Shown here piece after piece: positions 13,701 through 61,314 of a stretch of DNA of 64,000 bases (position 1 is its first letter; each line of letters opens with the position of its first letter). The notes beneath the pieces were generated by a model. It searched no databases. It had not been told where the DNA came from and saw nothing but the letters and a program-made list of their open reading frames with translations. The DNA comes from Enoplolaimus lenunculus (taxonomy: Eukaryota), in NCBI GenBank assembly GCA_030248215.1, contig JASANG010000621.1:310001-374000 (forward strand), read 5' to 3'. Position numbers and translations under genes: made by a program.

Positions 13701-16002
13701 TATATATTCGGTATGTATGTATGCATATAGTCTGAATATCTGTTCGCAAGGGAGTTGGTAAATATTCGTTTTACGCAACCCACTCGCATACAGATTGTAA
13801 CAATAAATAAGCTTCAAGTTGGGTGTAAGCCTCGACTTAAATTCTAAGCGAAATAATAATGAACAGTAATGTTGGGGTTTTTTACCTTATAACCTTGTTG
13901 TGCTAATTGCAACAAAACTGTCATTTTTGTATAACTACGAACACGATAAAGGATGTAGCTATAAACCAAGACATGTTGAGCCAGCTATTTTCATCAATTC
14001 AAAATTTATGTAATATAAACCAGTTTGCTCTGTGACAGCTGAAATACTATTGGTGTGTTAATATCCTTTGCCTAATTTAAGTACCTTTTGGAAACGAGAA
14101 ATTGGCTAAGTAAGTGTTTACTTCGAAACTATTCATGTATTTCTAGTTTTGTTAACTGAACTGTTGTTATTTGTGACCATAAGCTTAAGTTTTGCATTGT
14201 ATCAAACTTAGAGCAGTAGGCAAACTCTTAATTCGTGCTACTTGTAACATTTAGTGTACATTTTTGTTCTATATGTTTAATCTCATTTAATTTACTGGTG
14301 CTTGACCCATGCAGTCCGATCTATAAAGGGATCAATGGTTGGTACTACTTCTGAACTGAAAATTGACGCCGTGTGTTTTCTAACGGAGTTTTCAAAGGTT
14401 TATAGAATTAAATTGACAATACCGCATCTGATGTTGCAAATATTTTTTCTAAAACAGCGCTACACGGCAAAAAATGGTGAATCAAATTGACTCTCCGAAA
14501 TAGGCTCTACGGGACTACACAAACTGCGTCAAATTCGACTCCGCAAGAGCCTAATTTGACTCACTGAGCCGCACGTTTGACTCTGGTGGAGTCGAATTTG
14601 ACTCAGTTTGTATAGTCCCGTAGAACCTATTTCGGAGCGAGTCAATTGGACTCACCATTTTTTGCAGTGTATTTTTATCGATCAATTCTGATTAAATGAT
14701 TTGTATTACTGACAATGATCCACATCAGGATGACACGTAGTTCTTTAAACACATTTAGGGGGTCTGAAGATATATGTTGAAGTGTTTAATAGCTCCAGAG
14801 CAAAAAAACTTGCTGTAAGAAATAGTTTGGACGTTACTGTGGTGACAAGAATAAGAGGGTCAGGTAAATAAGGGTCCGGAATTCCTTGTTTGACTTTCAA
14901 TCAATAGGAGTCTATTTTTCTAATTAGAGTCCGTTAATGGATACCGTCCAATGACTTACTAATTGGTACATAAACATCAATCACCCCATGTGTTATCCAA
15001 ATAACTAGAGCTGGGTTAAAATTATTAAAAAAATATATATAATGGTCCTGAAGCGAATAGCTAGAAGGGGTACCCTCTGCAGAAGCGAAATAAATATCAG
15101 ACTTCCATCTTATTCAAGCCACTACAGTATGCCTTTTAGCCTCCTTAACCATGATATCGCACCCACAAACACACAAAATTACTTGAGAGGTTCAACGAAA
15201 TTAGGTATGTGACAGAATTTAACACATTTTACTAACCATAAATTTTTATTATCAAACATTTCTATTAACCTGTACTAAATAAAGTAGTTGATAAACATGT
15301 CCTAGACCTATAATCAATCAGGGTGTAAACGGATAGTAAAAATATCGGAAGCGGAAACGAAAACGGATAGTGATCAAAATAACGGAAACGGAAGAGGATA
15401 TTGAAGTATAAAAGTTTCAAAAACGTTTTATTTTTCCGCCATTACAATTGAGGCCTGCAAATATTTACCGGTACAAAATTTTTTAAGGAAAAATGGCGGA
15501 TGCATAGAAATTTTTAAGATTTTGGATGAATTTCGTAATTTTTAATTCATTTCAAATTGCAGCATATCTGTAAATCAAAAATTGCGAGAGATGTACGTGA
15601 CTTATAACTAATTTTGAACGTAAAAATAACAGAATTTCCGTTATTTCTATAACGGCAACGAAAACGGACACCGATTTTTATCGGAAACGGAAATGGATAT
15701 TCGGTTACACCCTGCGTGTAATACAAATCTATCTATCACATACAACATACGCACACCCATCGAACAATATCTGCATTTCCTCGGAAATTTTCAAAAAATA
15801 CACACGGTTTTTTCTATTTTTCCAGAATATCATCGCAAACCCAGCACGAAACAACAACAACAGCACAAACATAGAATCACACGAAGGCCTCACTTATGCT
15901 GAACTGGACCTGGTCCGCGATTCAAGCCGGCCGCCGCCGCCTGCATATCAGCCCACAGAATACGCACATATACAACCACCGAAAACTCCTGTATCAATCT
16001 AG
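4787..16002 (+). CDS. Ig-superfamily single-pass cell adhesion protein (Fasciclin-3/nephrin-like), spliced isoform of ~699 aa
   Basis: Phase-consistent GT-AG exons: 4787-4835 (signal peptide MFVLCFVVVYQLISIL), 5171-5980, 6691-6974, 9131-9281, 9804-9985, 10567-10708, 10913-11041 (TM ISLAIGLAIALFIILLLVSLVYCW), 11611-11647, 11989-12127, 15826-16002; total 2100 nt. Ig motifs CSVAANPEP..W, CAARAYPLPAMTW and GSYWCTA. The membrane-proximal FCSNPPP..W..CY..L.VEN..G domain resembles Fasciclin-3 domain 3. Confidence 0.85.
11989..12469 (+). CDS. Alternative extended terminal exon of the Ig protein (isoform of ~754 aa ending KEVAV)
   Basis: The frame stays open past the donor at 12128 for 114 more codons to TAA at 12467-12469, ending in the PDZ-ligand-like YVSKEVAV. 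Confidence 0.65.
14463..14669. mobile_element. Palindromic Tc1/mariner-type MITE
   Basis: Ends CACGGCAAAAAATGGTG...CACCATTTTTTGCAGTG with ~80-bp inverted arms and TA on both sides. A related copy with nested inserts lies at 61315-61686. Confidence 0.8.
15319..15714 (+). mobile_element. hAT-like MITE (CAGGGTGTAA family)
   Basis: TIRs CAGGGTGTAAACGG / CGGTTACACCCTG; collinear with the copy at 18864-19247; no clear TSD. Confidence 0.75.
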
Positions 16003-38968: not shown

Positions 38969-41900
38969 CTACGGCGTATTCGAACCACTCCGGGTCGACA
39001 AATCGTCATGTGTACTGTTGGAATTCAACGCGGAAGATGGGGACATTTTTTGCTGGCCAGCACCAATCATAACTTCAGTTGCGCCCAGAGGTTGTGGTGC
39101 TACCCCACTACTTCCAGCCCCAGAATCGTCCCCAACACTGCTCGTAGTATCAAGCGAGTGTCGACGGCCTTCAGACCCTCCACCATCTTCCTGAGGCGGC
39201 GCTGCGGCCGCCGCTTGTCGCCGTATTTTGTCCTGATGCGCAGAACGAATTTCGAACACTTTTTCAATGCCTTTTTTGAAGCAATGAAAATTGTAGTCGA
39301 TAAGACCTTAAAATATCTATCAAACGATACAGCGTATTTATTTTAAAGAAATGAAACTCGCCAGTAATTCGCTACACCGGAGCGTGTATGTCACAAACAG
39401 TTAAGTGTTCGCTTAGGCTTAGATTCACGCTAAGCAAAAGGCTTTTAATTTTGTTTGGTACATCTTCTAAGTATTATACGTTGTAAGTTAATTATATTCC
39501 ACATATTCTTAAATAATAACTCTTACAACTACCTGTAACCGTAAATCAGTGACGTAACTTGTAATTAATAAATAAAAAAAGTAGAACTAGTACGTAAATA
39601 ACTCTCATAACACTCCTATGCATAGCCCTTAATTCAGTTGTAAGTATCTTACCTCGTTTCTCAAACTTATCAGATCGCAATATGCTGACTAGTGCAAGGC
39701 ATTCATTGATATCTTGTAAATACAATACTGTATTGTTGTTCAGTTTAATCCACGCTGATGTTTTCGTGTCGATATAATTCTGCGTCGTAGTGTTTCGTCT
39801 GAAAAGGCCATTAGCGTCAACTTATCAAATCAGGAGCTGTATTCTCAATTGCGTGTAGCACCTATCGTCAGTTTGTAGCAGGCTTTCGCATGCAGTAAAC
39901 TACGGTGACTATGGTTCTCGAACTTTGGAAGCGAGCGAGACAAATTAAAATATGCAAACAATGTGACAAATTTTAACACTCATCATTAACTGACTCGTGA
40001 ATTATATCATTTAATACCAACTAGCGGTAGGTGCTACACATTTGAAAATATAATCAACACAGGTCGCAAGATTCAAAATTTCAGGGCGTTGAACGGCAAA
40101 ACATTTGTCATAACTAAATTTGATCATTCTAGTACATATTTTGCAAACAAAAATTTCACGAATTTCAACTGAACAATTGCCAAACAATATTGAAATAAAC
40201 CCTACATAAATGATTCATGGCATAACCACAACATTCCTATATACGACAATATTCCGATTCCGATATGATAAATCCTGCTCTGGAATGTTATTTTTGAGAA
40301 TTTTTAACAACATAATCAAGTAACAGTGTATGTTGGCTTATCAGCATCTACCGACCATGGGAATAGAATCGACACGGTGGCGCTTTACTTGTGCATTTTA
40401 TGCCTGAGGTGTGTACATTTTTCCTAAATGACCATGTAAAAATGACTGGAAGTTCTTTTTAATGGGGATCATTTTTTCTCATGACAGTACTTTAACAATC
40501 GGACTTCCATGAAAATGGGCCAGGGGGTCATGTTCTGTTCGGTCATTTTATCATGCGACACCGGAACCTACTGACAAACCGAGCAGTTCCAAACTTTTAT
40601 AGAGGGGAAGCTCCATTCCGTTTCCGCTACATACGTCTACGTACAACACCCCCAACTACCGACTTACCCATATATCGACGAAACATCAGACACAACTTCA
40701 ATCATATCGCAACACAATTCGTACGTTTGTGGATCGACTGGTGAATGATCAGTGGCGACATAAATTTTACTGGCAACATCGAACAAAAAAGCTTTATCAA
40801 CACCTGATGTCTGAAACAAACACAACACACCATTCAAAAACAAAATAAAAATTCAACAATAACTAAGTTTCCCATATATGAAAACTATAGTTTCATCTCA
40901 CAAAACATCAACATTTTGGTAGATCACGCTCTATCACCCTTACAAATAATACCAATACATATTTACTTACCCAAATAAAAATATTAATTAACGCCTCAAG
41001 TGTTGATAATTCAACAATTAATTTTTGAACAACTTTGCTACACGCCTCGAATATTGAATGATCGTATATACTCGTCAAGTAGAAACTGAAAATATGCACA
41101 GAAGTACACACAACATCACATTCACTATTGTTCAAAAAAATCAAGTTTTATATATACCAGAATCAGTATTCATACACCTATGCAATAATTAACTTAAATT
41201 TTATCTGAACAATTTCGCACATTATATATTGTTTCAAAAACGAGATACCACCCTTATCACCATCAATTGAAGTCACACATGATATGAAAGAGACTACGGC
41301 AATTTCTCTCTATTTTTTAAATATTACTCTTCCATTGGTAAAATGAAACCACAACAGTTAAATATCACTGTCAATATATAGATATACAAGTTGTATAATT
41401 TTGCAATTTTATATCAATATCAAATATACAAACCAGCACCAACGAAACATAGCAAAAATGTTAATTCCAGCTATATATACCACGCTGAGACTGTTATAAA
41501 ACACCTTATCCGATGTCTCCAAAACCACACCATTGCACCTTAAGCTGATCTTTCCAGTAAGCCCAATGAACCGTATTTTATCGTTAACTTTCGCTGCGAT
41601 ATCACGTTGGACTTCAATTTTTTGATCGTCAGTGAGTCCATCAACTTTGTGAATAAATATTTCGAATCGTAACTCTGGATTAATGTTGTACGCGACCATT
41701 ATCGTACGGCCTAGCTTGTCTATCGCATTTTCGTAGTCTTCCTGTAAAAGTTACCAAAGCAAAAGCTAAACCTTCTCTTAAACATTGAAACAGCAATTTG
41801 ATATTTAACTGACGTAGATGACATCAAACACGTCGAAGAGAAACCGCACGCCTAGAATTAGAACAAAGCAATCCGGCATACATTCCATTTATGTACATCG

Positions 41901-42864: not shown

Positions 42865-44575
42865 TACTAATACGTATTAGGTAACTCTATAAGAATACCG
42901 TAAAGAGTTATTAAATACATCTCACTAGATGTATTGCAGAGACATCACTATAGTGCGACTTTTGCCATTTTGCTTAAGATCGTATCTCTAGCTTAAGTCA
43001 GAGGTGTTCAATAGCGATGTTTACATGTCTGTTTTCAGTTGCGTTTTTTTCAAACCACTGCACAACCATCGGTCGGTATTGTCAGAGCTTCCAGAAATGC
43101 CCCAGGTTAGGGGGACAAAAATTTCGATTTTTTGGAAAACTTTTCAATTTTGAGCAAAATGTTTACTTAATAAATAATTTCCAGTTTAAGGACTTACTTA
43201 AACGAAAAAAGTAACTGATAAGCAGTGCCACTGGCATATTTCAGCGTATAGATAGCACACGCAGTATTGCATTGAAACCTCTCATCCGATAGGCTGCTTA
43301 ACCGAAGCTAGTAACATCCGCTCATGCCCACTTCAGGATGGTCGTCCAAATCATTATTCCAGCCTTGGCCTCTGCGCTGGTTTAAAAGAATGTATGCAAC
43401 GATTTGGAATAGTCAACGAACGTGGACAAACACCGTTCGGACTTGACTTACTGCGACAACAACGTTACTGCGTTGCGTTTCATAGACTACGAGCCATCGA
43501 AATTTATGACGAAACCAAAATCACAGACTTTTTGGACCACGCATAACAAGACGTTATGTTACATGACTTATTAATTTGACATTACACACGATTTCAAGAT
43601 ACACTACTGAGCCGCAACAGTCCAAATCAAGCATGTCATACACTGATGAACATTGCACGTCGTTACATCTTGCCACGACTACATGTCGAAGAAAGCGTAA
43701 TCGGTAGCCTTGACGCCCTCCAAGACAGAAGCGACGTTGCTGTGTCAACTATAACAAGACTGGACAATTACCTGTGCAGATTGGGCCACTTGTGGCTCCT
43801 CTTGTCCTTGTCTTCTTGGTGACGTTGACGAACTGTTAGAAGCTAAACAACTACCAAACACAATGACAGCGGAACAAATTATAGACTTGGCTTGGAAACG
43901 CAACGAACCTGACTTGTTAGCATAATACTTAAAAGAACAAGTTGGCGACCGTGAATTAGCCGACATACCGCATGACGAAATCCCGGAATCACTAAAACAA
44001 TCAGTACCATAGTATTCTGACCTACAGACGGAAAAAGCGCAAGACTACATACAGTCAAAGACAATACATCAAGATCACATCTCACATATTGACCACGCAG
44101 AGACAATGAAACTAGAGTACGAACGCTCGCCATGACAACATCGAGAACTTTCAGACGAACCTGAAGAACTAGACGAAAACAACATAGCAATTGCCAGAAG
44201 ATGCAGGCCTGTTGTTGGACGACATTCAGGCAAACCTGAATCCACCGGTTTAATAATTATCTAAAGTCGACTTTACGACAACACATAAGGACTTTTACGA
44301 AGCTAGTAAGTAACAACAAGATCTACGAGGACAAGGACGCTTTTACGACGACGATGATCCGAATGCACCACCTATGAATACATCACAAGATAAACAGAAT
44401 TTTTACAAAGATGCTGCGATTGCCTTTACGTCACACCGAGGGTATCCCGGACGTTCATTTGTTGCATTTGACATGACAAAAACTGAACGTGACGAATCAC
44501 AAGCAGAACGAACAGTTGAACAAATACTACAAAAAGAAGGTTTTGAAACAACAGAGGAATGAACATGCATAACAA

Positions 44576-44890
44576 AGAACATCTTTAAAAACTGCAGGTT
44601 CAAACGACAGCTATGCAAAAGCGGCTTGACGCTCAAGCTCAAGCCAACATTGACAATTCACGTGACGCACATAGATAGCTTAAAGACGAAATTTTACGAC
44701 TGGAGACAATTGCAAGACAAAGCTAGTACAAATACAACAAACATGGAACGACTTAAAGAACATCTTGAAGAAATGCAAGTTCAACGACAGTTATGCAAAA
44801 GCCCCTTGACGATCACGCCAACATTGACGATACAAGTGACGCACATAGCCAACAACTTAAAGACGAAATTTTACCACTAGAGACAATTAT
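44576..44890 (+). repeat. Diverged ~180-bp-period direct repeat within the decayed ORF
   Basis: AAGAACATCTT...CGACAG.TATGCAAAAGC..CTTGACG...GTGACGCACATAG...CTTAAAGACGAAATTTTAC.ACT.GAGACAATT occurs twice. Confidence 0.8.
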
Positions 44891-45623
44891 CAGTGATTTT
44901 AGCCCACTTTGTGAACGGCGAAAGATACGTGTACCAGAAAGATTATGAAAACGCTAGTTGACGAAACACATTCGTTCGCCATCGCCAACTCAAGGCACTA
45001 TGTATTGTAAGAAAGGTCGTATCATGAGTTCTGATAAAGCGCCGGCGTTGCACATCGCCACGCCGATCTTCTGGTACGACTGGAAGGGTTAACAAGCAGC
45101 ATCAGACATGCGTGAACAACAAACGCTAGCAGAACAATTACCAGAAGATCTTACTAAATGCGTTGACATACACACTGGCGAAATGCTACTGTAATACCTC
45201 ACAGGTACACGGACTTCGACTACCCATTCTTTGAAGGAGAAGGGTTAGGCCAAAACAATGACAACAGTTGCAATTTCATTTGTCAGCAATGTATTTTTCA
45301 ATGTACGAGTCACCACGATTTAAGGACAACCAGACTGACTGGTTACGTGGACGCATCGCTGAAATGGCAAAGAAATTTAAGGACGAATTGCAACGAACGT
45401 TAGCACAACGCATAATAATAATAACGACGTATCGTGAATTTATCGACACGTTATCTTACACCGAAGCATGCTTTTTCGAAGCAGCACATCAAACTGGCGT
45501 ATTGGATTTGACAGAAACGCATTACATTGACGCGTTGCGAACTCTTGCTGCATTTCTCCGCGACCGAGTCATCCATGTGATTGCGCTATGTGACCGGAAC
45601 AAGAACTTTTTGCAATGGGCCAC

Positions 45624-46829
45624 CAGGGATGGGAGTCTCGGTCTCGGTCTCGGAAAGTCTCGGGATTTAGCAGGTTTCGGTCTCGGTCTCGGTCTCGGTT
45701 TTTTGAGTCTCGGTTGTTTGGAACCGAGACCGAAAGTCAAGAATTCAGCAAATGCTGGTGAACCTATACAAAGTTGAAGTTAATCACAATTATATACAGC
45801 GACTTGAGAACAGAATGACGCCTCAACGATTGTCAAAAATCCTTTTTTGAAAGAAAATCCAAAACAGTTTGTCTCGGTTGTTTCACGACATAAATAATAG
45901 TTTTTTATTGTTATGCACAGTGTTCTAACACAATAGGAACAATATTAGCCGGAACAGCAACAGGCAAAGCATTTGAACTTTTCGTCGGAAGAAGGAACGT
46001 GAACCGGCATTTATGAAAATTCACCACCGAAGTACTGCAGGTAAAATTTAGCCACAAACGAATTCTAGTGGAACCCTGGTGCATACTTGAATTTCAGTAT
46101 GGCTGTATTGATGAACAAGTGATGTCTGCTGAATACAGGGTGCAACCGGAATTGCGGTTCCGGCATTTTTTCACCTTCCGGTTCCGGTAAATTTTTACCG
46201 GATTTAAAAATTCCTGTGTTATAATTTGGCCGTTTTCGTAACTTTGCTAATTTTTAAGAATCACTTTTGAAAGCCACTAGTACTTCTACTGTTTTTGCAT
46301 TGCTTGTTCATGCAGTGGTTATTGTTGTGGACAAAAGTATTTTTCTGGAAATGTATATATAAATCTTGACAATCATCGAATATAAGCCATTGCTGGTGGA
46401 TTTCACTTCAGTCGATGATGAAAATCTAAAATACAACAAATAAAATAAATACCTATGTTAGACTAAGGTTATTAAAATGAAATTTTTGGTGAAAGTCATT
46501 TTTCACTTCCCGGTTCCGCTTTGGGTAAAATTTTCAAATTCCGGTTCCGGTAAATTGTAATTCCGGTTGCACCCTGGCTGAATAACATTTCGCTGTGAAT
46601 CTGTGAATTCTCATTGTTACGCAATATTTACGAGTAGATCGATATTAATAAAATCACAAAAAACTTTGAAAACTGCAAAAAACCTTCAAAAAGAAACTAA
46701 TTTACTTTAAAAATTCAAATTTTTTCGGTAATGATCAAAAATTGACCGAGACCAAGACTTTTCTTGACCGGTCTCGGTTGTCGGGTCTGGGTCTCCGTCT
46801 CGGTTTTGTACCGAGACCGCCCATCCCTG
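45624..46829. mobile_element. hAT-like non-autonomous element
   Basis: TIRs CAGGGATGGG.GTCTCGGT / ACCGAGACCGCCCATCCCTG; 8-bp TSD TGGGCCAC/TGGGTCAC; subterminal GGTCTC repeats. Confidence 0.85.
46136..46576 (-). mobile_element. hAT-like MITE (CAGGGTGCAACCGG family) nested in the 45624-46829 element
   Basis: Perfect TIRs; perfect TSD GCTGAATA; reverse-complement homolog of 24844-25234. Confidence 0.9.
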
Positions 46830-47695
46830 TGGGTCACATCCGCACCCTTATCACCGATTAAAATGGAACTACAAATGCGTGCCAGCAAACGTTTCCTCGA
46901 AAACGCAACGACAATGCAACGATTCTTGCAATTACATTTTCCAGCAATAAACCTCGGGAATCACAGACGTTCATTTGACTACATTATTTTGGACTACGAC
47001 GAAGCAAAAAACATTAGCTTACCACAACGACATACGTTTACGTGCGATGGAAAAAGAACTTAAAGACGATAGAGGTGTGCAAACTCGTAGCACGTGGGTC
47101 GCAAAAATGGCGCTCATTATACTATTTTATAACGCCTTGCCGTTTATATGTACATAAAAATTATATTTTATAACCCTTTACGCTGTTCATTGACGTGCAT
47201 AGCATATATTTTGCATAATATCTCAAAAACTATTGACGCTTTGGCAATAAAAGTCATTAACTTCCATTGTATTGTTATGGTATGTATTACTAGTTCAGGA
47301 CGTCGTTGTGTTCGTTATTCTGTGCGTTGTTCCGTTTCGTTCGCGTGCGCCGTTCGTTACAATGTCAGTATAACCAACCGTAGCGTCTGTTATATAACTT
47401 GGTTTCGTTTGTTTACACTATGTTGCGTTATTGAACATTTATGTACGTTCTGTGTTATATTCGCTTGACGCCGGGTTCACATAAACCAAATCCGCGAAGC
47501 ACAAAGACATTTATCAATATCCACAATCATTTTCGATGCATAATTTTGCTTGTTTTTAGGTCATCCAGCCTTTGCGTGTCAGTCTTTGCATGTCAAAAGA
47601 CAACATGAGCTGAGACAGAAGGATGTCGGATGGAGCCCCAGTGTGCTTTCTCTGTCATTGTCACATTGGTGCTCACCATCAGCAACCCTGCTTAC

Positions 47696-48080
47696 CAGGG
47701 TGCAACCGGAATTAGAATTTACCGGAACCGGAATTTGAAAATTTTACCGGAACCGGAAACGGAACCGGAAAGTGAAAAATGCATTTCACCAAAAATTTCA
47801 TTTTATTCTTATTTTTTGCTCTATTATTTGTGAAATAACCTTAGTCGAACATAGGTATTTATTTTATTTGTTGTATTTTAGATTTTCGTCGTCGACTGAA
47901 GTGAAATCCACCATCATTGACTTATATTTGGAGTACAAGTGGCTTTCAAAAGAGATTCTTAAAAATTAGCAAAGTTAAGAAAACGGCCAAATTATAACAC
48001 CGGAATTTTTAAATCCGGTAAAAATTTACCGGAACCGGAAGGTGAAAAAATGCCGGAACCGGAATTCCGGTTGCACCCTG
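47696..48080 (+). mobile_element. hAT-like MITE (CAGGGTGCAACCGG family)
   Basis: Perfect TIRs; perfect TSD CTGCTTAC; nearly identical to 24844-25234. Confidence 0.9.
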
Positions 48081-49502
48081 CTGCTTACCTTATTCCTGGT
48101 CAAAGTCAACCATGTCATTTGTGTGCATTATTATATATTTCGTATTGTCTTAAGGTACTAAACCCGTTTTCCTACTAAATTTCATAAGCTCGTTACATTG
48201 CGCTATTCCATTTCCGCCAATTCACTCTATTTTCTAAAGTTTGTGCCAATATGTTCATGCAATGTTTTCTACTCAATTAACCGCTGGTCTTTAACTTTGG
48301 GCAAACTTCGGAGCGAAGTCGCGAAGACCGTGTAGTTTCAACAGCTGCTATCTAGTTAAGTAATTACTGTAATATTACCATTAAATATAACGAATATAGC
48401 GAGAGTAAGGCTGCATTAATTCTGTTTGCCAGACTGATGTTGCTTGGTGCCAAAATCATGTGTTAAGTAATTGAGCTGACGTTGTGCGTTTTTTTGGGTT
48501 TTCGAACCTTAATTTTCGTTTCTAAAGCACTTGTTTAACTTGTTGCTCCAAGGGAAGTGTGTACCCTGAATCGTAAACTGATTGCTTTGAGCGTAAAACA
48601 TACAATGCTAAAAATAGATATTTATAATGCAACTGCTTCAATAGTGCTCGGTTTTCGGTTTTTAAGATTAGTACTAGTGATGGTCATGGGATATTTTTTC
48701 ATATCCGGATATCCGGCAAGTCGTGCCGGATATTTATCCGAATATCCTGCAACAGAGATTCTATAGAATGTCACCCTTCCCTCGACCTACGTATACATGA
48801 GCTGTTTTTTCGTATTCCAAGAAGAAAGACCCACATTATAAAATATACTTACGCTAAAACGTACAAACATCAGTCCATCTTTTTAGTGGTGTCCTGCTTT
48901 TACTGGCAGATCCAGAAATTTCTGACGGGGAGCAGGCTCGTAAATGTTTTAATACGTAATTTTTCACCAAAATTTTTTGAGGGGGTAAAATTGTACGGTA
49001 TGCCTAATCATTTTTTACAAAACAACTTTCCGAGGGAGGACAGTTGCAATGTACAGACCTTGTCATATTATCACAAAAAAATTTGAAGAAGGAAAATTAT
49101 AGGGACGTTATCATAACTTCAAAATTTATGAACTCATGGCTTCTGTGTCATGATAAACTCAAATGTGCCGAATACAGATTGCCAGGTTTTCAAGCCAGCC
49201 TGTTACTATTAGCATCATACTCAAGGCTTGGCGTCTTAAATCCAAAGCGGACGCAATTGACGTATGTATGAGTAGATTTTGTTTCTTGCAATTAGATAAA
49301 TAAGTTTAGTGCTTGACGGTGCATATTCGATGCAAGTTTTTCACTGGGCTAATTTTTAAATAATTTAAAAATACGAAGTCATTTTTCAAGACAGCTCGTG
49401 TGGTGAGATGTAGCACTTTAGATGATCCGAGGTCTATCGCCTTTTAGAAAAATATGGTAAAATTTTTCACTGAAGTATATATAAATATTTTGGCCCATGT
49501 TA

Positions 49503-51240
49503 TGCGTCATCCATTTTAATGTGTGCTCGCCGTGTGGAAAATTGACGCAACCATTTCCAAGTACGGTTTTGAAAAACGCTTCAAAAAGGAAATGGAATTT
49601 CAAAACTGTTTCAATTTCCCACAGCTATCGATTTTTCAAACTCAAGTAGTTAATTGATAGCATTATTTGATCTTCAATTTACCATTAGCGCTTTTTTAAA
49701 CAAGGGCAATGGGAAATTGCGCCATTTTCCAAATTCAATTTCCGCTTTGCCTTGACACTTCAATTACCAAAGTGGAAATTGAAAGAGAAGCATAACGTTT
49801 AGCAATTAAATGATATTGTCCCTCTTATCGAAAATTGAATTTACAGTTTACAATTTCAATTGTGATATTGTCCCCTAAAAGGATGAAATTTTACAACTCA
49901 AAGTTCAAATAGAAGGTTAGGATGAGAGTTTCTAGAAATGATGTTTGATGGGCCACCCAAGTCGCAAGGTTGAAGTTGTGCGATTGAAATTTTGAATATC
50001 TTGACGTTAGTGGTCATTCGACGCTTGGGGTCAAGTTTCTTGTGCTACCAGTTTTACTGAGGTTGGGTTTAAAATTGGAACAGCAATTTTTTTGCGCACA
50101 TTGGAGTTACTTTTTATGGAGTACGACGGTATATTGATTCAAGGATTGGTGATTACAATTGGTATCCCCCGCAAACTGAAACCGCATATAGTCACGTTGA
50201 ACTTACTATGTCCGAACGTGTCTACGATCTAATTAAGAATATAGACGAAACGAGCGAAGATTTATTAGTGTTAATAGTTTTGCATAATTTAGCAAAAATT
50301 ATCTGTTTAGTTCGTTTTGATTGACTTCTGTCACTTTTCAAAAAATCAACATAAAACCAAACAACTTAACAACATATTGCAGATATTGGCTAAAATTAAC
50401 TAATTAGCCATCATTTTTACTACATAATTTCGCCCCACCTGCGGCTCCGGCTCCGGTATTTTTCACCTCCGGTTGCACCCTGCTACGTAAATGTATACCA
50501 GACAGACTTCACAGGCGTTTACAGAACTAAGAACCATGATAGAGAATTGGGCTCAATTACTTCAGACATCACGCCCCCTAAACGTCAGTCACTTTTTCCT
50601 ATACTTAGTGCTTCTTAGGCTAAGATTTAGACTTAGGGCTACGGTTACCGCCCCTGGATTGTTTTTTCCGGAAAAAAATTATGACCGGAAAAAATGGAAA
50701 AATGGAAAAAACTCATTCCTTGTCTGAGTGATCGGTTATCCCACCCAAATCTTTCTTTCACTTCCGACGTCGAAAACGCCTGCCGTCATAGTTGAAAGCG
50801 AATTATTGCACCGATTAGTTCAAAGGTCATGTACCTACAGCAGTGTTTCCGCTTTTATGATTTTTTCAATTTCCCACTGCCCTGCTGATTTTCAACTACC
50901 GTGAGGGAAATTGAAAATGAAATTTGGGTGCCCATTTCCCACTGCAGTTTTGGTGACTTTTCAATTTCCTTTTTGACAGCAAATTTAGCTTATCAATTTC
51001 CTATTTAAGTTTTAAAAATGTCTCAATTTCCTACTGCTGTCCTATTTAAATTCCCCATTGGGAAATCGACACTCAAAATATCATTTCAATTTACTAGTAC
51101 GGTTTGTAAATTGTCTCAATTTCCCACTAGACCAATTTTTTCAAATTAAATTTCCTTCTTGAAACGTTTTTCAAAACCGTACTTGGAAATGGTTGCGTCA
51201 ATTTTCCACACGGCGGGCACACGATAAAATGGATGACGCA
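49503..51240. mobile_element. 1.7-kb non-autonomous TIR element with TTA TSD (PIF/Harbinger-like)
   Basis: ~75-bp TIRs beginning TGCGTCATCCATTTTA; TTA at 49500-02 and 51241-43; many subterminal CAATTTCC motifs. Confidence 0.85.
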
Positions 51241-51249
51241 TTACTTTAA

Positions 51250-51386
51250 GGGGCGTCCAGGTTTTGGTTGGTCTATAAAAGAGTAGGTTTAGATTCTAGG
51301 TTACATTTTTTTGCCTAGGCTTAAGAACTCATTTTTGCAACGCTTAGCCTTAGGTGTAGCAGTACGCTTAATCTACTGTTACGCCC
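51250..51386 (+). mobile_element. GGGGCGT-TIR MITE containing TTAGGC-like repeats
   Basis: Collinear with 32927-33065. Confidence 0.75.
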
Positions 51387-52439
51387 CTTTAAGTAACATT
51401 GGCCAATATTTTTGACAATAACATATGAATAATAATGTAATCAATCGGATTTATTAGACAATCTGAAATTTTCTCGCTGACCCATGAGGATTTTGAAAAG
51501 TAAAAGTTTCATAGCTAGATTCAACATAAATGAAGTTTGTTTACGTTAAGTTTTATTTGTTTGCAATAGCTACGAGTTGTGTCTACAGTTTCAGAATGAG
51601 TAAGGAGTCATTGCCGCAAAATGTTGCAAATATTTAACGACACTGGAATACTACGATAATTGCTAGATATTTTTGCAGGATCATCCAAAACGACTTGGAG
51701 GTAGATAGCTACCAGGGTTCAACCGGAGGTCTATTGTCGGCCGCAGGGCCAGTCGGGAACTTCAAACTAACCGGTAATGAAACAAAAAAAACATTAACTA
51801 TTTTACCGTAGTAATAAAACTTGGTGTTTTTACCGGAAACGAAAATTGATTTTTGCTGTAAACAAATATCCGGTTTACAGCCTGGCCATAACCCTTCCAT
51901 CACGGCCAACAGTTTTCAAGGACTCTCAACGTTCAGTCGCCATTAACTACAGGTATGTCTATACCGTTACGACTTACACTCACAATAAACGGAAGCAACT
52001 ATACTTTTATTAATACGATAAAATACAGGCCTGTTACTTATATACAGGGCGGCCCCGTTTTCTGATGGAACTGCAAGATACTACTGTTATGCTTATACTT
52101 ACACTGTTTAAGACGATTATGCTGCTTAGGCTAAGGAACATACTTCTACTGGTTTTACGGCCCCAAAAGTAACACCTGCCAAAAAACAAATATTATCTCA
52201 ACTCTACATATATACAAATATACACTCAACTCTGCATTTTTGTCGTAGTTCTATGCATGTGTTGTTCATATAAAAAAAAGAACAAGTTTACTAAAACTGC
52301 ACCGTAAACGAGAACCAGTTACACACCATTTGTGCTAATTCCATATGAACAGATAAACTCAAAAACACTAGATTCGAGTATGAAACTAGCATTGAGTTAA
52401 GTTTAAGTCCGAAGCGCTCGTTTGCCGAACACCCCGGGT

Positions 52440-54170
52440 TTTATTAAAAGGATAAACCACATTTACATCAACGAAAGCAATTATATAAACCAAAGAAGGC
52501 AACAACATATTATCATAACATAACAAAGGTCCTTGAAAATTACCCATTATTCTACTCTGCTTGCAAGGATATTATTCAGAGCAAATATGTTAAAAAGCAC
52601 ACAAGAAACCTAGTTTCAAAACAAACTACAAATCAGGTACGCTGAGAAAAAGACATTCGAAAACCCAGCATGCTATCATTCTGTCGGGTTATTGTTCCAA
52701 AAACCTTAAAAAAACATTCTGCTTTTAGATACAGCTTAAGTTTGCACAAATTTCTATAAACATTTTCCTGAAAAACATCAACAACACAGACATTTTCATT
52801 GTTAAACTCGAGTTTACATCGAGCACTCCATATTGCCAATTGTGCATGTTGGACGATGAAATTAAAAGCTATTCTCTTTAATGGGTCGTGAATATTTCGT
52901 CCCAAAATTAAATCCGAAATCGTTATTTCATTTACTCCAGCTACCTGTTGCAAAACGGGAGTAATGAAAAAACTAATTTCTTGCGCCCGCAAACAATAAA
53001 TAAACACATGAACATTATCCTCCCGCACTTCAATTCCATCCAAATAACAAAACGAACATATATTTGTCCCATCTGTAAAATGACTAGTGCGGTGATTAGT
53101 ATACAATGACTTGTGTCTTAACCTAAAATGGACGTCTAGCGCAGAGCCGTCAACATATTTCGCTTTTGCCCATATCCATGATCCCTCGACAAAAATAGGT
53201 TCAACTCCTTGCTCGTCTCGCCAAAAAACATGTTTAGGATGCATGAGTCCCTTATACACAGCGTGTATCCACATTTTATGCAATTTATTTGCCGACACTG
53301 TTTTTAAGGATAACTTTTCGCCAAAAAACCAACAAAAATTTCCATCCATTTTAAAAGATGACTCAATCATTGCAATCCGTATCTCTTTATATACTCCGGT
53401 ACATCAATGCGTCTCAGTTGACGTTTAGTCGAAAACTGAACTTGCCGAAAGAAATGTTCGAAACATCTCTTCCAACTCACAACTTCGGTACCTCTTAATA
53501 TTCGAATATAAAACATTAAACGATTCACTTTCAGTCTGACAAAAATATTTGGGAAATTTATCCCGCCGTGACTAGGTTGTAAAAACAGGATATCCCTTCT
53601 AATAATACTAGCGGTGGACGGGTACCACAACCACTTATAAACCACATTGATAGTTTCCTTCACTAGTTGCTCAGGGGGTGTTACTAATTTTATCAAATAA
53701 TTAAACATACACAAAAAATAAATGTGAACAAGATGGATTTTTCCAAAAACACAGAGATACCTCGGGGCGGTATTCGCTGTTCAAGACTTGCAATTGCTTC
53801 ATAGCACTTTATCCAATTTTCAGGAACATCGAGTCCCTTTGAATCAAACCAAAGGCCATAAATTTTCACTCTTTCAACAATAAAGCGTGCATATTGATGG
53901 GGTACAAGTGCGTTCCTTAGATCGCCCATTAATAGTATCTGTGTTTTAGTTTCCTTTAGTCGGCTGCCAGAGGCCTTTTGAAATTTTTCAAAAACATCAA
54001 AAACCACACTTATATCTGAAATCCTACTTAGAAAAATATTAGTGTCGTCGGCAAACTTAGTCACTCGGGTGTTAATGCCGTATAGTGGTATCCCCGAAAT
54101 TCTTGAAGTTATTCGAAGATAATGAGCTACCACTTCCGCTGTTATGACATATAATGACGGCGATAAGGGA
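52440..54170 (-). mobile_element. 5'-truncated, frameshifted Tx1/L1-clade non-LTR retrotransposon (RT C-half plus zinc finger)
   Basis: PLSPSLY, KFADDT, SGSRL..KT, VKIYG, GGINFPN and C-terminal CSFC..EDNVHVFIYC are spread over ORFs 53693-54184, 53367-53714 and 52633-53370. AATAAA at 52445-52440. Confidence 0.9.
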
Positions 54171-54899
54171 AGTATTTGTTTCATTTGCTGTATTAGTTTC
54201 TAAAAGTCTGTACTGTGCTTCCTCTTTTTCAGCAAGTTTGATTGCATCCTCCAGTGACTTAGGTTCCTTAGATAAAACAAATTTTTTCATTCTACGGTCA
54301 CGAAGGCCTTCAATAAAAAAGTCGCAAGCGAATGCATCTCGTGTATGTTCATCTATATTAGGCCATGCGCCACGTGCGAGTACTTTAATAGCTTGCCCAT
54401 AGTCACCTACGCCTTCTGTAACTAATTGTTTGCGACGAACTAGTTCATTTCTTTTAAATTTTTCTCCCTCTGGTGCTTGCAGTAACTCTACAAGTTTAGC
54501 CGTTAATGCTGAGTAACTGCGCTTAGTGGCATCAGGTAGTCCACGATAACATTCAAGTGCAGTGCCTCTTAAATACGCTGGTAGTACTTTGGTTTTCCGA
54601 GCTTCATTCCAGTTATTGGCGTTGGCTACAAGTTCAAAAAGTTCGAACCACTGTTTAAAATCTTCCCCAATTTTTCCATGATATAGTGCAAGGTCGGTTT
54701 GGTATGTTACAGATGTGCTAGAAGTGGTGTCTAAATCAGTAATTTGTTCTTGTAGTACTGCAACACTTTTATTTGTTTCCGTTTGATTGCGTAAAAGGTG
54801 TGAAATTTCTTGATTTTGTCTTTCCAGGGCTCGCAAAATGCTATCTGTGCGCTCCTTCCCCGTGAAAGATGTAGAGGGTGCAGGGTCCTCCTTAGACAT
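54171..54899 (-). CDS. gag: Ty3/gypsy-type Gag, N-terminal/capsid half (truncated)
   Basis: Capsid motifs YHGKIGEDFKQWFELFE..ANNW, LPAYLRGTALECY, RKQLVTEGVGDY, FIEGL and PKSLEDAIKLA; lies downstream of the LTR and PBS. Confidence 0.9.
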
Positions 54900-55280
54900 T
54901 GAGTCCGGTTTAGACCAGGGCGCTTAGAATTATTCGAAAATATGGGATGTACCAGCGGGTACGGAATGGTAAAGCAAGAATTGGGAGCGAGATGCGCTCC
55001 GGAGATGAACGAGGTACGTTCGAAGGCTTCTGGGGGCGCCCAGAAGAGCTTCTGGAACTAAACGGACTTGGTTATGAAGGACGTGCTAAGGTGTGATGTT
55101 GCCTACTTAAAGTATCCCGTTTTATTTATTGTGAGTTAGTTAGTATGGTTAAATTAAGCCTAATTAATTTAGTACGTGTGCTTAATTTTACAGTGTAAAT
55201 TTGTCGGTTGGGTTGTTTTGCTAATGTGTCTGTTACGGGGAAGCGGTATTCCTATCTACTGATTGCACCGGGTTTGAATT

Positions 55281-55303
55281 TTCGATCCCCAGTACGACCT
55301 CCA
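55281..55303 (-). promoter_or_regulatory. tRNA primer-binding site
   Basis: TGGAGGTCGTACTGGGGATCGAA, 4 nt after the LTR end. Its complement reads as T-loop TTCGATC, T-stem CCCAG, acceptor strand TACGACC, discriminator T and CCA. Confidence 0.85.
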
Positions 55304-55307
55304 AAAA

Positions 55308-55772
55308 TGTAACGCCGCTTATGAATTCTATCTACTTACCACAAGGGATCCAATTCGTGGCATGCGCTATCAATAAACCCACGAAACTGGCCGATAATTG
55401 TAAACGTCCAGAGCGAAAAGATAATACGAAAAACTCGGTTTTCCAAGCGATAAATACGGCGCACACAGCCCGTTGGTAAGAAAATGTAAACTGCCAATTG
55501 CACTGAAGTAAACAGCAAAATTCCAACTAGTTCTGTTCTCTAACCGCGCTCTCCGTTTATATATCAGCTAATTGTTTAGCCTTAACATTCAGAATTTTAC
55601 AACATTTTTTTAACTACCCTTTTCAAATCTTCCAACTTTGCGCATTTCATAAAATCAACATTTCAAATTATTTTCTCTTTTTCTCCATTTACAGCTCGTG
55701 AACAATGCCTATTCATCACTGGTTTTAAATATAAAAATTTAAGCAAAGTATGAATAATCACCAAAAGTTACA
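55308..55772 (-). mobile_element. 5' LTR (465 bp)
   Basis: TGTAAC...GTTACA terminal inverted repeats, TATATAAA at 55563-55556, followed by the PBS and gag. No second LTR found in the window. Confidence 0.85.
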
Positions 55773-56186
55773 CTGCGCCACACTGCAATTAAAGCAGCCT
55801 TGAAGGGTTTAATTGAAACTCAACAGGCTATGATACACCAACTTACAAATAAAACGGACCGACGTGTTTCATTTGTAGAAGACGGTGCAGTAGCCGCTAT
55901 CGAACCAGAAGATAAATATAAAAATTTAAGTCTTGAAATAGAACGATTGCATAGAAGATTAGATGGGTTCTTTCGGGTACAAAATAATCGTAGACCAGAT
56001 TCGAGAAGATTTAGTTCACCGGGTTACCTTGGACGCTCCACCACTTCGGGCAACATACGCTGTGAACACTGTAATGGTGCACACCACAGCTATACTTGTA
56101 CTCGAAAACCATACACTTCTAGTTACCGGTCAGCAACGCCAGACAGACCCAGTAGAAGTCCGGGACGAACATTTAGAGGACAATAA
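55773..56186 (+). CDS. gag: Gag C-terminal half (coiled coil, CCHC zinc knuckle, R/S/P-rich nucleocapsid region)
   Basis: Frame is open from the LTR edge; CEHCNGAHHSYTC = CX2CX3HX4C; basic RS-rich flanks; no start codon of its own. Confidence 0.75.
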   Translation: MRHTAIKAALKGLIETQQAMIHQLTNKTDRRVSFVEDGAVAAIEPEDKYKNLSLEIERLHRRLDGFFRVQNNRRPDSRRFSSPGYLGRSTTSGNIRCEHCNGAHHSYTCTRKPYTSSYRSATPDRPSRSPGRTFRGQ

Positions 56187-58334
56187 CCATACTATACTAG
56201 TCGGAATGAGCAGCGAGGACCTACCCTAAGCACACCTAGACGTGCTAGTCCATCTCCAGCACGCGGAGCTCAGCATAGCAGCAATAACCGAGATCGAAAC
56301 TATGTTAACAGTATTGATACTACAAACTTGGAGAATTTACAGGCAGAGAATGACGCTTTGAGGGATCACTTGCAACGGTTAAGTGAAGCTGGACCGACAT
56401 CCTTTTTAGCAAATGTGATACCACACACTAAACCTCAACAAAAAATTATTAATTCATACCAACCAACCACAAAATTTAGGTTTATACTCATCATTGCTTT
56501 TGTACTTATATACTACTGTTTTTATTGCGGTCACTGCGGTACATATAACTTTTGTCAAGGTAACAAAGGGGGTCACGCTATAGCAATCCCACAAACACTC
56601 ACCTGTGTTAATCCTCATGTGGCAAAAGTACAGGATATAGATATTAGACTTTTTACACCTCGAACCGAACCCGTAATAAGGACCACATGGAAATGTTCTA
56701 TTATACAAAGAACTATTTGCACTAACACTGGGTTCTTCGGTTCAAAAGGAATCGTTTCAGATAACACTTATGAAAAACCAGCTGATATTATCACTTGCAA
56801 AATAGCACGCACTAACAAGGTCTATAGAAATACAACGCTCATTCAGACAACTCCAACTACCTGGTCTACCTTGCAAACTTTAAATGTGAAATACAAATGG
56901 TGCTGCTATAGTTTCTGCCAGTCAATTGAGAATTTTCTCCTAGAGGTTGGCCAAGCCGCGACATTTAATGGTGTGGTTCTAGTTAGTAGTCTAGGGGATC
57001 TTAGCGCCTGCACAACCTCCAATGACTATTGTCAAACACGTACAGCAACCTACGTCTGGATCAAACATTTTCCACCAGGACCTTTATGTCACTTACAAGA
57101 GCATGGTACATACACCGGAAAAATTAGTAACCAGCACATCATTGTCGATGAGGTTCAAGGAGCATTTACACTTACTAATATTACCACTATAAATTGCCGA
57201 TGCACAAAGGGTATTCTACATGAGACATTTGAAGGGGTTAGTATCGAATTTCTTTCCGTTAATAGTTTACAACTGAAATCTCTGCAAACCCAATACTCGA
57301 TGCAAACAGATGACAATATTGCATCAAACACCAGTGAACATACTAACGCCATCGATCCTGTCAATACTAAATTAAATTATTTACAATACCAAATTAATAG
57401 AATGCAAATTGAAAGTTTTGCACGGGTATGGCAAGAGTTATGTGCTAATAGGAAACGACAACTACATATGATAAAACAATTAATAACACTAGATGCCACA
57501 TTGGGAGCCAGAGTTTTACTTCAGCGGGACAGCATACATGCAGTTATAGCTGGTGAAGCACTTCTCGTATGGGACTGTATACCAATCGAAGTTACATATT
57601 TTTATTGGGACCACAATTTAAATGGAACCTGTTATGAGTATATACCTGTTGAAACAAAACTCAAAACACTTTTTGTTTTGCCAGGTACTAAAGATCTAGT
57701 GGCTGAATCAAAAATTATACCTTGCAATACACCACTGCATACTTATTACCAACTTCAAAATCGTTGGCATTCTATAGGACAGGAAATTCATGTATCCGAC
57801 GTACCACTGAATCTAATCTGGACCTCAAAATTTAAATTCTTTTCTTTTAATGCCAGCTCAATTGCTCTGAGACATACTTCAAACTACCTACCTTATATGT
57901 ACCAACTCTTAAATGAAAGACAACGGTACCGCGACACACAAACGCAATTAGACAGACTTGTTAATTACACAGCAGGAATGTCTTACGATCCATCAGTCGT
58001 CTATAATGTGATTAAAGGAACCGGAGACGGTATAGCTACGGTGGTTAAAAGTTATGGTAATACAGTTGGCAAAATATTTCATAGTGTTACTACCGACACT
58101 ATAAGTTTAGTCAATGGCTTGCTGCGGGGACCCATACAAATTATTATCAATCTCATAGTTATTATAGGCCTTATGTTAGCAGTTATTGGGTTCCTATATG
58201 TAGGCTATAAAAGAAGACTGTTTCAAAAATGCAAACCGCGGAAAACCATATTTAAAAACCGAACTATAACAAGGTTTTGGCCCGTGTCTAAAAGAATTCA
58301 CCACCAGAAGTGCCGGAATTACCAGATGTACTAA
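56187..58334 (+). CDS. env: Env: class III viral fusion glycoprotein (herpesvirus gB/chuvirus G-like), in frame with gag
   Basis: Internal signal-like FRFILIIAFVLIYYCFY and a Cys-rich ectodomain. VWQELC..LDATLGARVLLQRDSIHAVIAGEALLVWDC resembles the gB central helix region. Also CYEYIPV, a Gly-rich amphipathic membrane-proximal segment, TM IIINLIVIIGLMLAVIGFLYVGY with basic stop-transfer KRR, and several N-X-S/T sequons. Confidence 0.85.
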   Translation, partial: PYYTSRNEQRGPTLSTPRRASPSPARGAQHSSNNRDRNYVNSIDTTNLENLQAENDALRDHLQRLSEAGPTSFLANVIPHTKPQQKIINSYQPTTKFRFILIIAFVLIYYCFYCGHCGTYNFCQGNKGGHAIAIPQTLTCVNPHVAKVQDIDIRLFTPRTEPVIRTTWKCSIIQRTICTNTGFFGSKGIVSDNTYEKPADIITCKIARTNKVYRNTTLIQTTPTTWSTLQTLNVKYKWCCYSFCQSIENFLLEVGQAATFNGVVLVSSLGDLSACTTSNDYCQTRTATYVWIKHFPPGPLCHLQEHGTYTGKISNQHIIVDEVQGAFTLTNITTINCRCTKGILHETFEGVSIEFLSVNSLQLKSLQTQYSMQTDDNIASNTSEHTNAIDPVNTKLNYLQYQINRMQIESFARVWQELCANRKRQLHMIKQLITLDATLGARVLLQRDSIHAVIAGEALLVWDCIPIEVTYFYWDHNLNGTCYEYIPVETKLKTLFVLPGTKDLVAESKIIPCNTPLHTYYQLQNRWHSIGQEIHVSDVPLNLIWTSKFKFFSFNASSIALRHTSNYLPYMYQLLNERQRYRDTQTQLDRLVNYTAGMSYDPSVVYNVIKGTGDGIATVVKSYGNTVGKIFHSVTTDTISLVNGLLRGPIQIIINLIVIIGLMLAVIGFLYVGYKRRLFQKCKPRKTIFKNRTITRFWPVSKRIHHQKCRNYQMY

Positions 58335-58915
58335 AACCGAATGAACAAATTTTGAATACAGAAACAACAAGAAAACCTTCTTGGGCTATTATTGAGATTT
58401 CCGAAAAAGATACACCAATTTGGCCACCAAAATCAATTTGTGGTACAAAAACGGGTAATTTTCTTATTCCAGCTGAAGTGGCTGAGAGAAAAATGACTAT
58501 TATTTTCCGTTCTCCGAATATTTCTGACGCCACTCTCATAGCAAAAATGCTGCTGTTTTCCAATTCAAACACAATAGCCATTCATCGCAAAACTTTTAAG
58601 CATCCAACTTTAAGTTAACAAGTGAATCACTAACATTAGCTGAGCGCTTGTTACACGATAATGCAAGGTTAAAAACTTAAAGTAGGCTTTAAAGTTTCGA
58701 ACTCAACTTTATTTGGTCGTGGAGTATTTATGCGCTACAATTTGAAATAATTGACATTTATTTACTCTAATTAAGGTTTAGGGACTCTATTCGCTTACGG
58801 ACTCTTATTAGGGATACGGACTCCTATTGATTTGGACTCAAAATGGGAAGTCCCGCTAATTAACTACAGTAAGTATTCAGGCGGCGCAGATGCTTAACTT
58901 GTTTAAGAAACGTAC

Positions 58916-59023
58916 TTTTAAAATATTGAATCCGTTGCGTTCAATTTCGGCGCATATTTCGTCGGAAAATTCGTACGCATCCGGTTTAATAATTGCCAGT
59001 GTTTTCTCTGAATGATTTATCAT
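58916..59023 (-). CDS. First coding exon of a group II nucleoside diphosphate kinase (NME5-like); downstream exons not found
   Basis: MINHSEKTLAIIKPDAYEFSDEICAEIERNGFNILK followed by donor GTACGT; EKTLAIIKPD is the NDK N-terminal motif. Confidence 0.75.
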
Positions 59024-61314
59024 ACTTTTTTGTAGTTTTAAAGCAAATTTCAAATTTGACGCTAAATAAAAATGCAAAACACGGATCATTTTAAACTTAT
59101 AGGGAACATCCTTTTGAACGAGGAAACTGAACTATGAAATGTGAAACAATTTCTCGACTATTCGTTTTGCGTCTGTGATAGTTTACAATTTCAAATTGCG
59201 ATACAGTTGCATTGGCGGCATAAATTAAATATTTGAAGCTGTGATTGCTTGGGTTTAAAATATTTCTTAAAAATGTTAATTTTCAAAATTTCAACATTTC
59301 ATGCCGAAATTTCTTAAATTTATAAAATATATTCATTTCGATGTTTTATATATACATATATATGTATATAAGTATATATCAAGTGCAAATAAATTCAAAC
59401 TTTGTCACAACTAAATCATTACGCCATTTCAGGGTCAAAAACCCTCTGCGTGTCTCTACTGCTTACGATGCTGCTTCACTATCGATATTCCAACCGCAGT
59501 CGCCGAAATTTCTCATTCATAGGACGAATTAAAAAACTTAGAAGAAATTAAAAAAATAGGCTTAGATTGAAGGCGAAAACTGAAAATTAAAGTTCTGAAC
59601 ATAAACGAGTTGATTTTCAATCAATATGGTTGAAATGTTTTAGAAAACATAATGCGACATATGGGTTTACGTTTCTCTTTTTTCATTTTAATATTAAAGG
59701 TCAAAGAACGCGTAAACAAGAACTCGGTTTGAAATAAGATAATAAACCGAACAAATTTTATATACGAATGCAGTTACAGAAAACGGTTGCTAAGTAACGA
59801 CAACAATAATCTTGGTGTAGAATAAATATAAAAACGCAGGGTACGCAAGTGTACTCAACATAGGTTGGCTATAAAATATTTTGAAGACATTGAGCAAACT
59901 ATAGGCCGCAAGAGACTAGAAGCATCGATTTGTCACTTAGAACATATGCTATTGCAAGTACTGTAGGGACCCGAATAAGCGAGAAGGGGGTAATAAGATG
60001 GGGTCGCCATTTTGGGTAGTCCGTAACAGATAGAATCCCTAAACCCTATTTAGAGTCGATAAATGTCAATCATTCCTAACTGTAGCGCATGACTGACTCC
60101 AGGACCAAACAATTTGAGTTTGAAACTTGAAAGCGTACTTAAGTTTTGAAAATAGATTCCTTAGTATAACCTTGCATTAGCGCTCAAGCTGTTGACACAA
60201 GACAAATAAAAGTTTAATTCAACGGATAGTTGCAGTACCGGTTATTATGTCGCTAACAAAGAATGACGGAGCGTGGGATAAAAATAAACAACAGTCTGTA
60301 ACCGAATAACAGGGAGGTACCCTTTGGAGAGGCCAAATAAATCTCCTATCAATGTTTTTAACCACCAGGTTGCTAAATGTTAACAAACTTTCACGCTCGC
60401 CACATTCGCTGGCCTACTGCTTTACTTAATATCACATAACTCAATCGAACTGAAATATGCAAGAATGGTAATAAAACAGTTTTGGGGTGAGGTGTTCCGT
60501 GTGCTGTCTAAGCTTTTTCCTGAGCTGTTCCGCTGCTAAAGTAGAACACGTCAATGAATTTCGCTTCAAAGATGAGTTCACTCTCTAGATCCACCGTTGT
60601 GCAACTTTGGTGTGAAACTTTTTCGGAAAGGTATCCTCACAGCTATGAAACACGAGGGTGACCTCGCAAAATTTCAGATCAATCGTCGAGAAGTTCTGGA
60701 TCCACCTCTACGTTATGGAGGCCCATCCTGGAGTTTGGAGGGAGATCCCATCCCTGTCTGCTCCGGCTCTGCATATATTGCAATTCCGCAATATTTTCAG
60801 GACACTGGACCTTTAGTAGTTGAAGTATTTAAAACCTATGAACGACTTTATTAGCCGAGACGTTGAAAGCATTTGAGGTAAGGTCTAAACCCACGGTTCC
60901 TACCTAAACTGGCTGGCTTGGAGGCTACGCCATGAGCGCAATGGTAAATTACCGCGCTATGAAAACGGTGTACAGTCGAAAATAGGATAGACAGTCAAGG
61001 GACGACCTTGTTGAATATTGAACCAATGCAAAAAGTACTGATGGTTTCTGGCACGCTTCGCTCGCGATGTTTTTTGCGACATATTGCGGTGTAGACCCGT
61101 GCAAAAATATACTGGATCAGCAACCGGCAATGAATAATTCAGTGCAAACTGCAAATTGTGTACGCGAATTCTACTCGAATTTTTTATGTCATTTGAGAGC
61201 TTTGTTTGCCTGGTATGGCTAGTCTTGTGTAGCTCAGCGGCGGCTGTGGCTACACCATATATAGGTGGAAATTAGACTGTTTTAAACAAGTCGCTGCCCC
61301 CAATATTGTTCCTA

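Follow-up and report, generated by a model that had tools for sequence, protein, structure and literature searches.

A decayed Ty3/gypsy-type retroelement copy with a gB-type Env and the probable gag-env-pol order of its family

Introduction

Where does env lie in an LTR retroelement whose copy breaks off shortly behind it? This question is raised by a locus in a 64,000-nucleotide stretch of DNA, analysed at its full length and called the window here, in which a frame opens at 58292 behind the transmembrane (TM) segment of an Env-like product. The original prediction likened this frame to the start of an aspartic protease, possibly cut before its D(T/S)G motif, and suggested that env sits between gag and pol. 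We hold with high confidence that the window contains a defunct copy, rearranged and cut short, of a Ty3/gypsy-type LTR retroelement from a multi-copy family with a gB-type Env, that intact members likely encode one Gag-Env-protease-RT-integrase polyprotein, and that positions 58292-58494 likely represent a linker and the start of the protease.

Env, Gag and an inverted 5' part

The env ORF (56187-58334, plus strand, 715 codons) comprises a gag-env spacer, an ectodomain, a TM segment and a tail. It matches PF24664, the gB/chuvirus-type fusion protein family of Pfam, with an E-value of 7.8e-21 and a score of 74 bits, where the cut-off is 27, and relatives of this Env also match PF00606 weakly. 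On the plus strand, hydropathy marks a first hydrophobic segment at 56475-56531 and the Env TM at 58140-58202. Seventeen cysteines are common to the window Env and P0002-P0004 in one alignment (A1), the last of them being probably misaligned. The product of this ORF is, to judge from its sequence, a class III, gB/chuvirus-type fusion-protein ectodomain, and the window copy thus has both a class III (HSV/gB-type) Env and a TM.

Upstream of env, a gypsy-type Gag is found in two pieces, which match the Gag of gypsy polyproteins and are collinear into Env. The C-terminal piece (gag-C, 55783-56183, plus strand), which contains a Cys/His knuckle of 13 residues at 56061-56099, is similar to residues 262-378 of P0006, the closest relative (40%, E = 5e-16), and residues 262-1100 of the same protein, from Gag into Env, align on the plus strand (34%, E = 2e-126). 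The N-terminal piece (gag-N, 54174-54899, 242 aa, ATG at 54899), of Ty3/gypsy type, lies inverted on the minus strand and is 48% identical to residues 22-249 of P0006 (E = 1e-65) and 27-34% identical to 11 further Env relatives listed. Since residues 4-251 of P0006 fall on the minus-strand piece and those from 262 onward on the plus-strand piece, the two halves of gag run collinearly, and a single point of inversion separates off the 5' part.

The minus strand carries an LTR-like segment, a PBS-like site, the 5' UTR and gag-N, and the plus strand from 55783 carries gag-C, env and the linker. The putative 5' LTR (55308-55782, minus strand, 475 bp, TGT...ACA) has imperfect 8-bp inverted ends and is inverted relative to env, and its outer end sits exactly on the inversion junction (55782/55783). 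Four nucleotides past it, at 55281-55303 on the minus strand, lies a PBS-like 23-mer that could pair with a tRNA-like 3' end terminating in GACCTCCA; no tRNA gene was found in the window. An exact 18-bp match between 55726-55743, in the LTR-like segment, and 55913-55930, in gag-C, in the opposite sense, is A/T-rich and may be due to chance. On the other side, gag-N adjoins at 54172/54174 the 3' part of a high-copy LINE (52633-54172, minus strand, very high depth), which holds the C-terminal half of an RT (RVT_1, E = 2.9e-7). How can the 5' part of an element be turned around in this way? Auto-integration, nesting of two copies, a LINE-associated rearrangement and an assembly chimera may each account for it. 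Inverted in place, 54174-55783 resembles an auto-integration (inversion) junction, with its other side adjoining the LINE fragment.

Other copies of the family were sampled as contigs from three DNA runs, X1, X2 and X3 (two samples of one study, possibly including the source sample), in which about 70% of the words from 55786-58620 are present. It should be kept in mind that such contigs drop rare variants and that depth is not equal to copy number; in X1 the depth of the element is 114-479 and that of the unique flanks 17-28, and because this difference is several-fold, the family is considered multi-copy. Gag is separated from env by an in-frame stop (56184-56186, plus strand) that is seen in the window copy only: the codon differs from the window in all of the listed contig depth, namely 298.8 of 298.8, 447.1 of 447.1 and 61.9 of 61.9 in the three runs. 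At 58293-58294 on the plus strand, the window copy has a frameshift, and the contigs differ from it in length there in 110.5 of 144.9 depth in X1, in 323.6 of 323.6 in X2 and in 79.4 of 79.4 in X3. As the contigs of other copies differ in length at this very point, the break between env and the downstream frame had been correctly placed by the original prediction. Both the stop and the frameshift are breaks that other copies do not show in the listed contigs.

Are the stop, the frameshift and the inversion real decay, or artefacts of assembly or amplification? Artefacts would leave the gene order unaffected. The window version at 56185 is in no listed contig and that at 58293-58294 in none of X2 and X3, and no joint across 55782/55783 is seen among the matches listed, as artefacts would have it; in X1 a multi-copy contig stops at 55781, by the outer LTR end. 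However, rare variants are dropped by the contigs anyway, the copy carries many other private substitutions, as expected of an ageing insertion, and its unique flanks match the runs almost perfectly. We therefore regard artefacts as unlikely and continue with the decay of a real copy.

Gene order among the relatives

In which order do the relatives of this Env arrange their genes? A search for longer homologues yielded, out of 3758 candidates, three proteins of 2293-2597 aa, all with Gag-Env-PR-RT-RNaseH-IN in one ORF. The locus L001, which is probably not independent of P0003, has a 2300-codon ORF with Env inside at the DNA level. A wider set of 153 Env relatives consisted of the best 150 of 540 HMMER hits plus P0002-P0004, and its layouts were assigned by profiles that were built from gypsy relatives and miss BEL/Pao domains. 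In this set, Env runs straight into PR within one ORF in 40 of the 153 proteins, and complete Gag-Env-PR-RT-IN polyproteins, mostly of 2,300-2,800 aa, number 10; other layouts are Env followed by RT/IN (3), Gag-Env only (13), IN before Env (1) and Env only (96). The nearest relatives are 48% identical to the window copy in Gag and 31-37% in Env. In a FastTree of 53 ectodomains the window Env pairs with P0006 as its sister (0.94), and P0007 and P0016, both of which have PR-RT after Env, join next (0.86); support is weak at the deeper nodes.

Some of these sequences deserve a remark of their own. P0001 and L001, the latter a eukaryote-like contig inside a MAG, carry retroelement sequences of animal type under the label of bacterial MAG contigs, and probably come from host contamination. 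P0020 has an Upf1-like helicase (AAA_11/AAA_12) in frame upstream of its Env. On viral contigs, no relative was found among 7 and 98 pattern matches.

The same Env family also occurs in another arrangement. Eight of 14 relatives checked against Pfam, which were chosen partly for this suspicion, are BEL/Pao proteins with Env at the C-terminus (P0013, P0012, P0036, P0038, P0043, P0053, P0070 and P0083); the family therefore exists in both layouts. Might the window env come from such a gag-pol-env element, and stand next to gag because of a deletion or nesting? The window locus is indeed rearranged, and some BEL/Pao Envs share a poorly resolved region of the Env tree with the group of the window Env. 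Against this origin, the Gag is of gypsy type and collinear with P0006 into Env, and the window ORFs scanned gave no match to DUF1759, Peptidase_A17 or DUF5641, so that an origin from BEL/Pao is extremely improbable. By its Gag match, its collinearity with P0006 from Gag through Env and its place in the ectodomain tree, the window copy belongs with the gypsy layout. As a separate observation, the Envs of three BEL/Pao proteins (P0012, P0013 and P0015) fall among gypsy gag-env-pol Envs, on a branch that is very short but has a support of 0.93; this hints that env has been exchanged between the two superfamilies.

The segment behind Env and its cut

The frame 58292-58618, which encodes KNSPPEVPELPDVL...FLIPAEVAERKMTIIF and overlaps the 3' end of the env ORF, is free of stops, as had been noticed, while the other two plus frames contain 2 and 5 stops over 58293-58494; an open frame of 67 codons has a chance of about 1% at the local base composition. 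No D[TS]G is found in 58292-58618, in agreement with the absence first reported.

How far does the element reach? Family contigs leave the window sequence at 58494, three of them in X2 and two in X3, with loose ends behind this point of a median length of 165 nt and 182 nt, respectively. From there, the rest of the element is replaced by an unrelated multi-copy repeat (58487-58600), recognized by loose ends before 58487-58490 and by pieces at 58489-58600, and the overlap at the junction of element and repeat is 5-8 bp. Because the family contigs stop matching at 58494 and a different repeat with left loose ends covers 58487-58600, the cut is placed at 58494; that the element is cut was seen correctly, and the position first given, about 58505, has to be moved. 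For the same reason the residues MTIIF are not derived from the element, and only ...FLIPAEVAERK is. The word AGTGGCGTCAG had been likened to MITE ends elsewhere in the window. It lies at 58524-58534 on the minus strand, inside the second repeat, and has no other exact copy in the window; its 7-mer AGTGGCG recurs at four other places. As a MITE end marking the break it was rejected, the true break being about 30 nt further left. In the comparison with other copies, which had been proposed as a check, the contigs run on past 58494.

Does the segment look like a protease? A string with a β-strand pattern had been offered as evidence, and by sequence alone the resemblance is weak: Pfam gives no match for the 66-aa downstream segment, its local scores against P0002-P0004 are equalled by 658, 820 and 112 of 1000 shuffles, and part of the string (MTIIF) comes from the unrelated repeat. 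A word WPPK, common to the segment and P0004, where it stands upstream of DTG, was also considered and dropped, being unsupported by the alignment score. Comparison with profiles, also suggested at the outset, did not help much further. A PSSM was made from 39 relatives, over the 22 residues that precede their catalytic Asp. Of 10 registers, the expected one, with the last element-derived residue at D-6, has the best score. This score is equalled by 803 of 5000 shuffles in any register and by 104 of 5000 in the fixed register, which is not significant alone; it is likewise equalled by 127 of 931 real 12-mers, and 10 of the 39 true members do no better.

Position is a stronger argument for the start of a protease than sequence, which alone cannot show it. 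In the relatives, the distance from the TM to the catalytic Asp has a median of 104 aa and a range of 69-449 (n = 39, one of 40 rows being left out for want of D[TSC]G). In the window copy, about 97 aa lie between the TM and the cut, and about 6 more would lead to the expected Asp. With about 97 aa against a median of 104 and the cut at 58494, the copy thus ends just before the expected active site. The segment 58292-58494 (plus strand), rich in Pro, Glu and Thr, is likely to be a linker followed by the first few residues of the protease, that is, by its position, the first strand or strands.

Could it instead be only a long cytoplasmic tail of Env, or a 3' UTR, in a gag-env element without downstream pol, either non-autonomous or with pol elsewhere? 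Several points would suit such an element: the segment has no significant similarity to proteases, P0006 itself stops about 85 aa past the TM with no protease match, and no Pol is present in the window, where profiles of PR, RT and IN made from P0002-P0004 have no match. But Env does continue into PR in 40 of the 153 relatives compared above (the top 150 of 540 hits together with P0002-P0004), the length of the segment fits the spacing from TM to Asp, and other copies extend at least 165-255 nt past 58476-58494. Furthermore, no LTR copy follows env. A 3' LTR directly after env had been named as evidence against env lying before pol; with 55311-55782 as query, no second LTR copy was found within the window, and the sole purine run noted after env is one of 10 nt at 58484. 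A tail or UTR is therefore very unlikely, and the linker and protease start remain the preferred reading. The Pol of the window copy's own family was not seen, PR-RT-RNaseH-IN being absent from this copy, which is cut at 58494. That env lies between gag and pol in the family, as the original prediction had it, is highly probable from the one-ORF Gag-Env-PR-RT-IN order of the relatives nearest to it in Gag as well as in Env, from the fit of the spacing and from the other copies, and not from the motif on which the proposal had relied.

Surroundings of the element

The window offers several observations on its host. The hexamer TTAGGC, the telomere unit of nematodes, occurs 51 times, against 20-32 times for three similar hexamers, and forms three interstitial arrays of 3 units, at 17361, 35101 and 35143, inside small repeats (families D2, D3 and D7). 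Together with the likeness of the PBS-like site to nematode ones, these hexamers point to a nematode as the probable host. Just behind the element, 58880-59050 on the minus strand is a host exon for the N-terminus of an NDK domain (PF00334), flanked by inverted copies of a very-high-copy repeat (58669-58803 and 60018-60150, 82%); a search of 79 minus-strand ORFs at 44300-52600 gave no other exon of this domain. Its product is presumably of NME5/7 type, and such a gene would be unusual for Chromadorea. Exons of a RagC/D GTPase (PF04670) lie at 38969-41750 on the minus strand, 59% to the only match found among 16 candidates, which is from a flatworm. At 5143-16002 on the plus strand there are exons of an Ig-domain membrane protein, with weak Ig matches and a YAELDL motif at the end, which looks Fasciclin-3-like.

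Discussion

How does this family compare with known elements? The NERVs (non-canonical nematode endogenous retroviruses) of Sacco (2022) are said to have one continuous gag-env-pro-pol ORF and an Env like that of chu/nyami-type RNA viruses, and reportedly are limited to Chromadoria and sometimes carry an Upf1-like helicase. As to a single ORF, other copies of the window family are without the gag/env stop and the 58293-58294 frameshift in the listed contigs, and their pol part was not seen. No Upf1-like helicase was seen in the window copy. NERVs place env before pol in nematodes (Sacco et al., 2022, given as the source in the available part of PMC13524379).

The nearest description is that of the elements named 'ancient errantiviruses', with GAG-ENV-POL order and an HSV/gB-type ENV (Chary and Hayashi, eLife; PMC13524379). 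According to the available part of that paper, errantiviruses of Nematoda, Bryozoa and Platyhelminthes have only a gB-type ENV and the order GAG-ENV-POL. As described there, these elements resemble the window copy in having a Ty3/gypsy Gag, a gB-type Env after gag with two flanking hydrophobic segments, and many copies. Their LTRs, like the LTR-like segment of the window copy, measure a few hundred bp. A PBS with the end GACCTCCA, as in the PBS-like site of the window copy, is found in 9 rows of Supplementary file 1, all from Nematoda, among the 30 of 35 ACCTCCA places listed. The window copy differs from them, by description rather than by sequence, in being broken, 5'-inverted and without pol. 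All 36 nematode rows of Supplementary file 1, as available, are from Chromadorea, and 'Enoplea' has 0 matches there. In the literature, no report of an enoplean gag-env-pol element was found among the matches listed. The BEL/Pao elements whose glycoprotein resembles that of chuviruses (Dezordi et al., 2020, after the available part of PMC13524379) have an Env of the same PF24664 family, but with env last (gag-pol-env) and a Gag of DUF1759 type. The gag-env-pol layout is already published for roundworms, flatworms and moss animals, and the window copy is one more example of it.

Another comparison is provided by giant gypsy elements of planarians, whose review is reportedly by Arkhipova and Yushenova. 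In these elements, Burro/GYPSM1, env lies in frame between gag and pol, which is called the first such case in the available text (PMC6431247). The Env of Burro matches fusion glycoproteins of mononegaviruses and its env is inside the gag-pol frame, like the layout that seems probable for the window family, as far as that text describes it. Burro ORFs, however, reach about 4,900-5,100 aa with BIR, Bcl-2, MATH and ankyrin cargo (same text), whereas the window family is compact and no cargo domain was seen in it.

What happened to the window copy, and in which host? It may tentatively be pictured, as something possible rather than probable, as an integrase auto-integration product, in which an internal site of gag received the outer LTR end in reverse orientation and the gag halves stayed collinear. 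Its family, with gag-env-pol in a single ORF, would then be present in many copies in a host beyond the range published so far, either an enoplean nematode or a member of another phylum with TTAGGC arrays.

How could a polyprotein with Env in its middle work? Following the established topology of polyproteins, the upstream one of the two hydrophobic segments would function as an internal signal and the Env TM as a stop-transfer sequence, so that Gag and Pol would stay in the cytosol while the class III ectodomain would enter the ER lumen. The parts may then be cut free by signal peptidase together with the protease of the element itself. A membrane-tethered precursor of this kind would supply capsid, fusogen and enzymes on one membrane in a 1:1:1 ratio, and it might couple capsid assembly to an Env-bearing membrane and thereby lead to cell-to-cell spread. 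The mechanism of entry of gB-bearing elements is stated to be unknown in the available part of PMC13524379.

An Env within a Gag-Env-Pol polyprotein poses the question of how a precursor that spans a membrane can be processed and then assembled. The layout itself is known in three phyla, and a cut-off copy that lacks pol has little to offer on this question. The value of the window copy is that it adds one more family and, possibly, a new host lineage.
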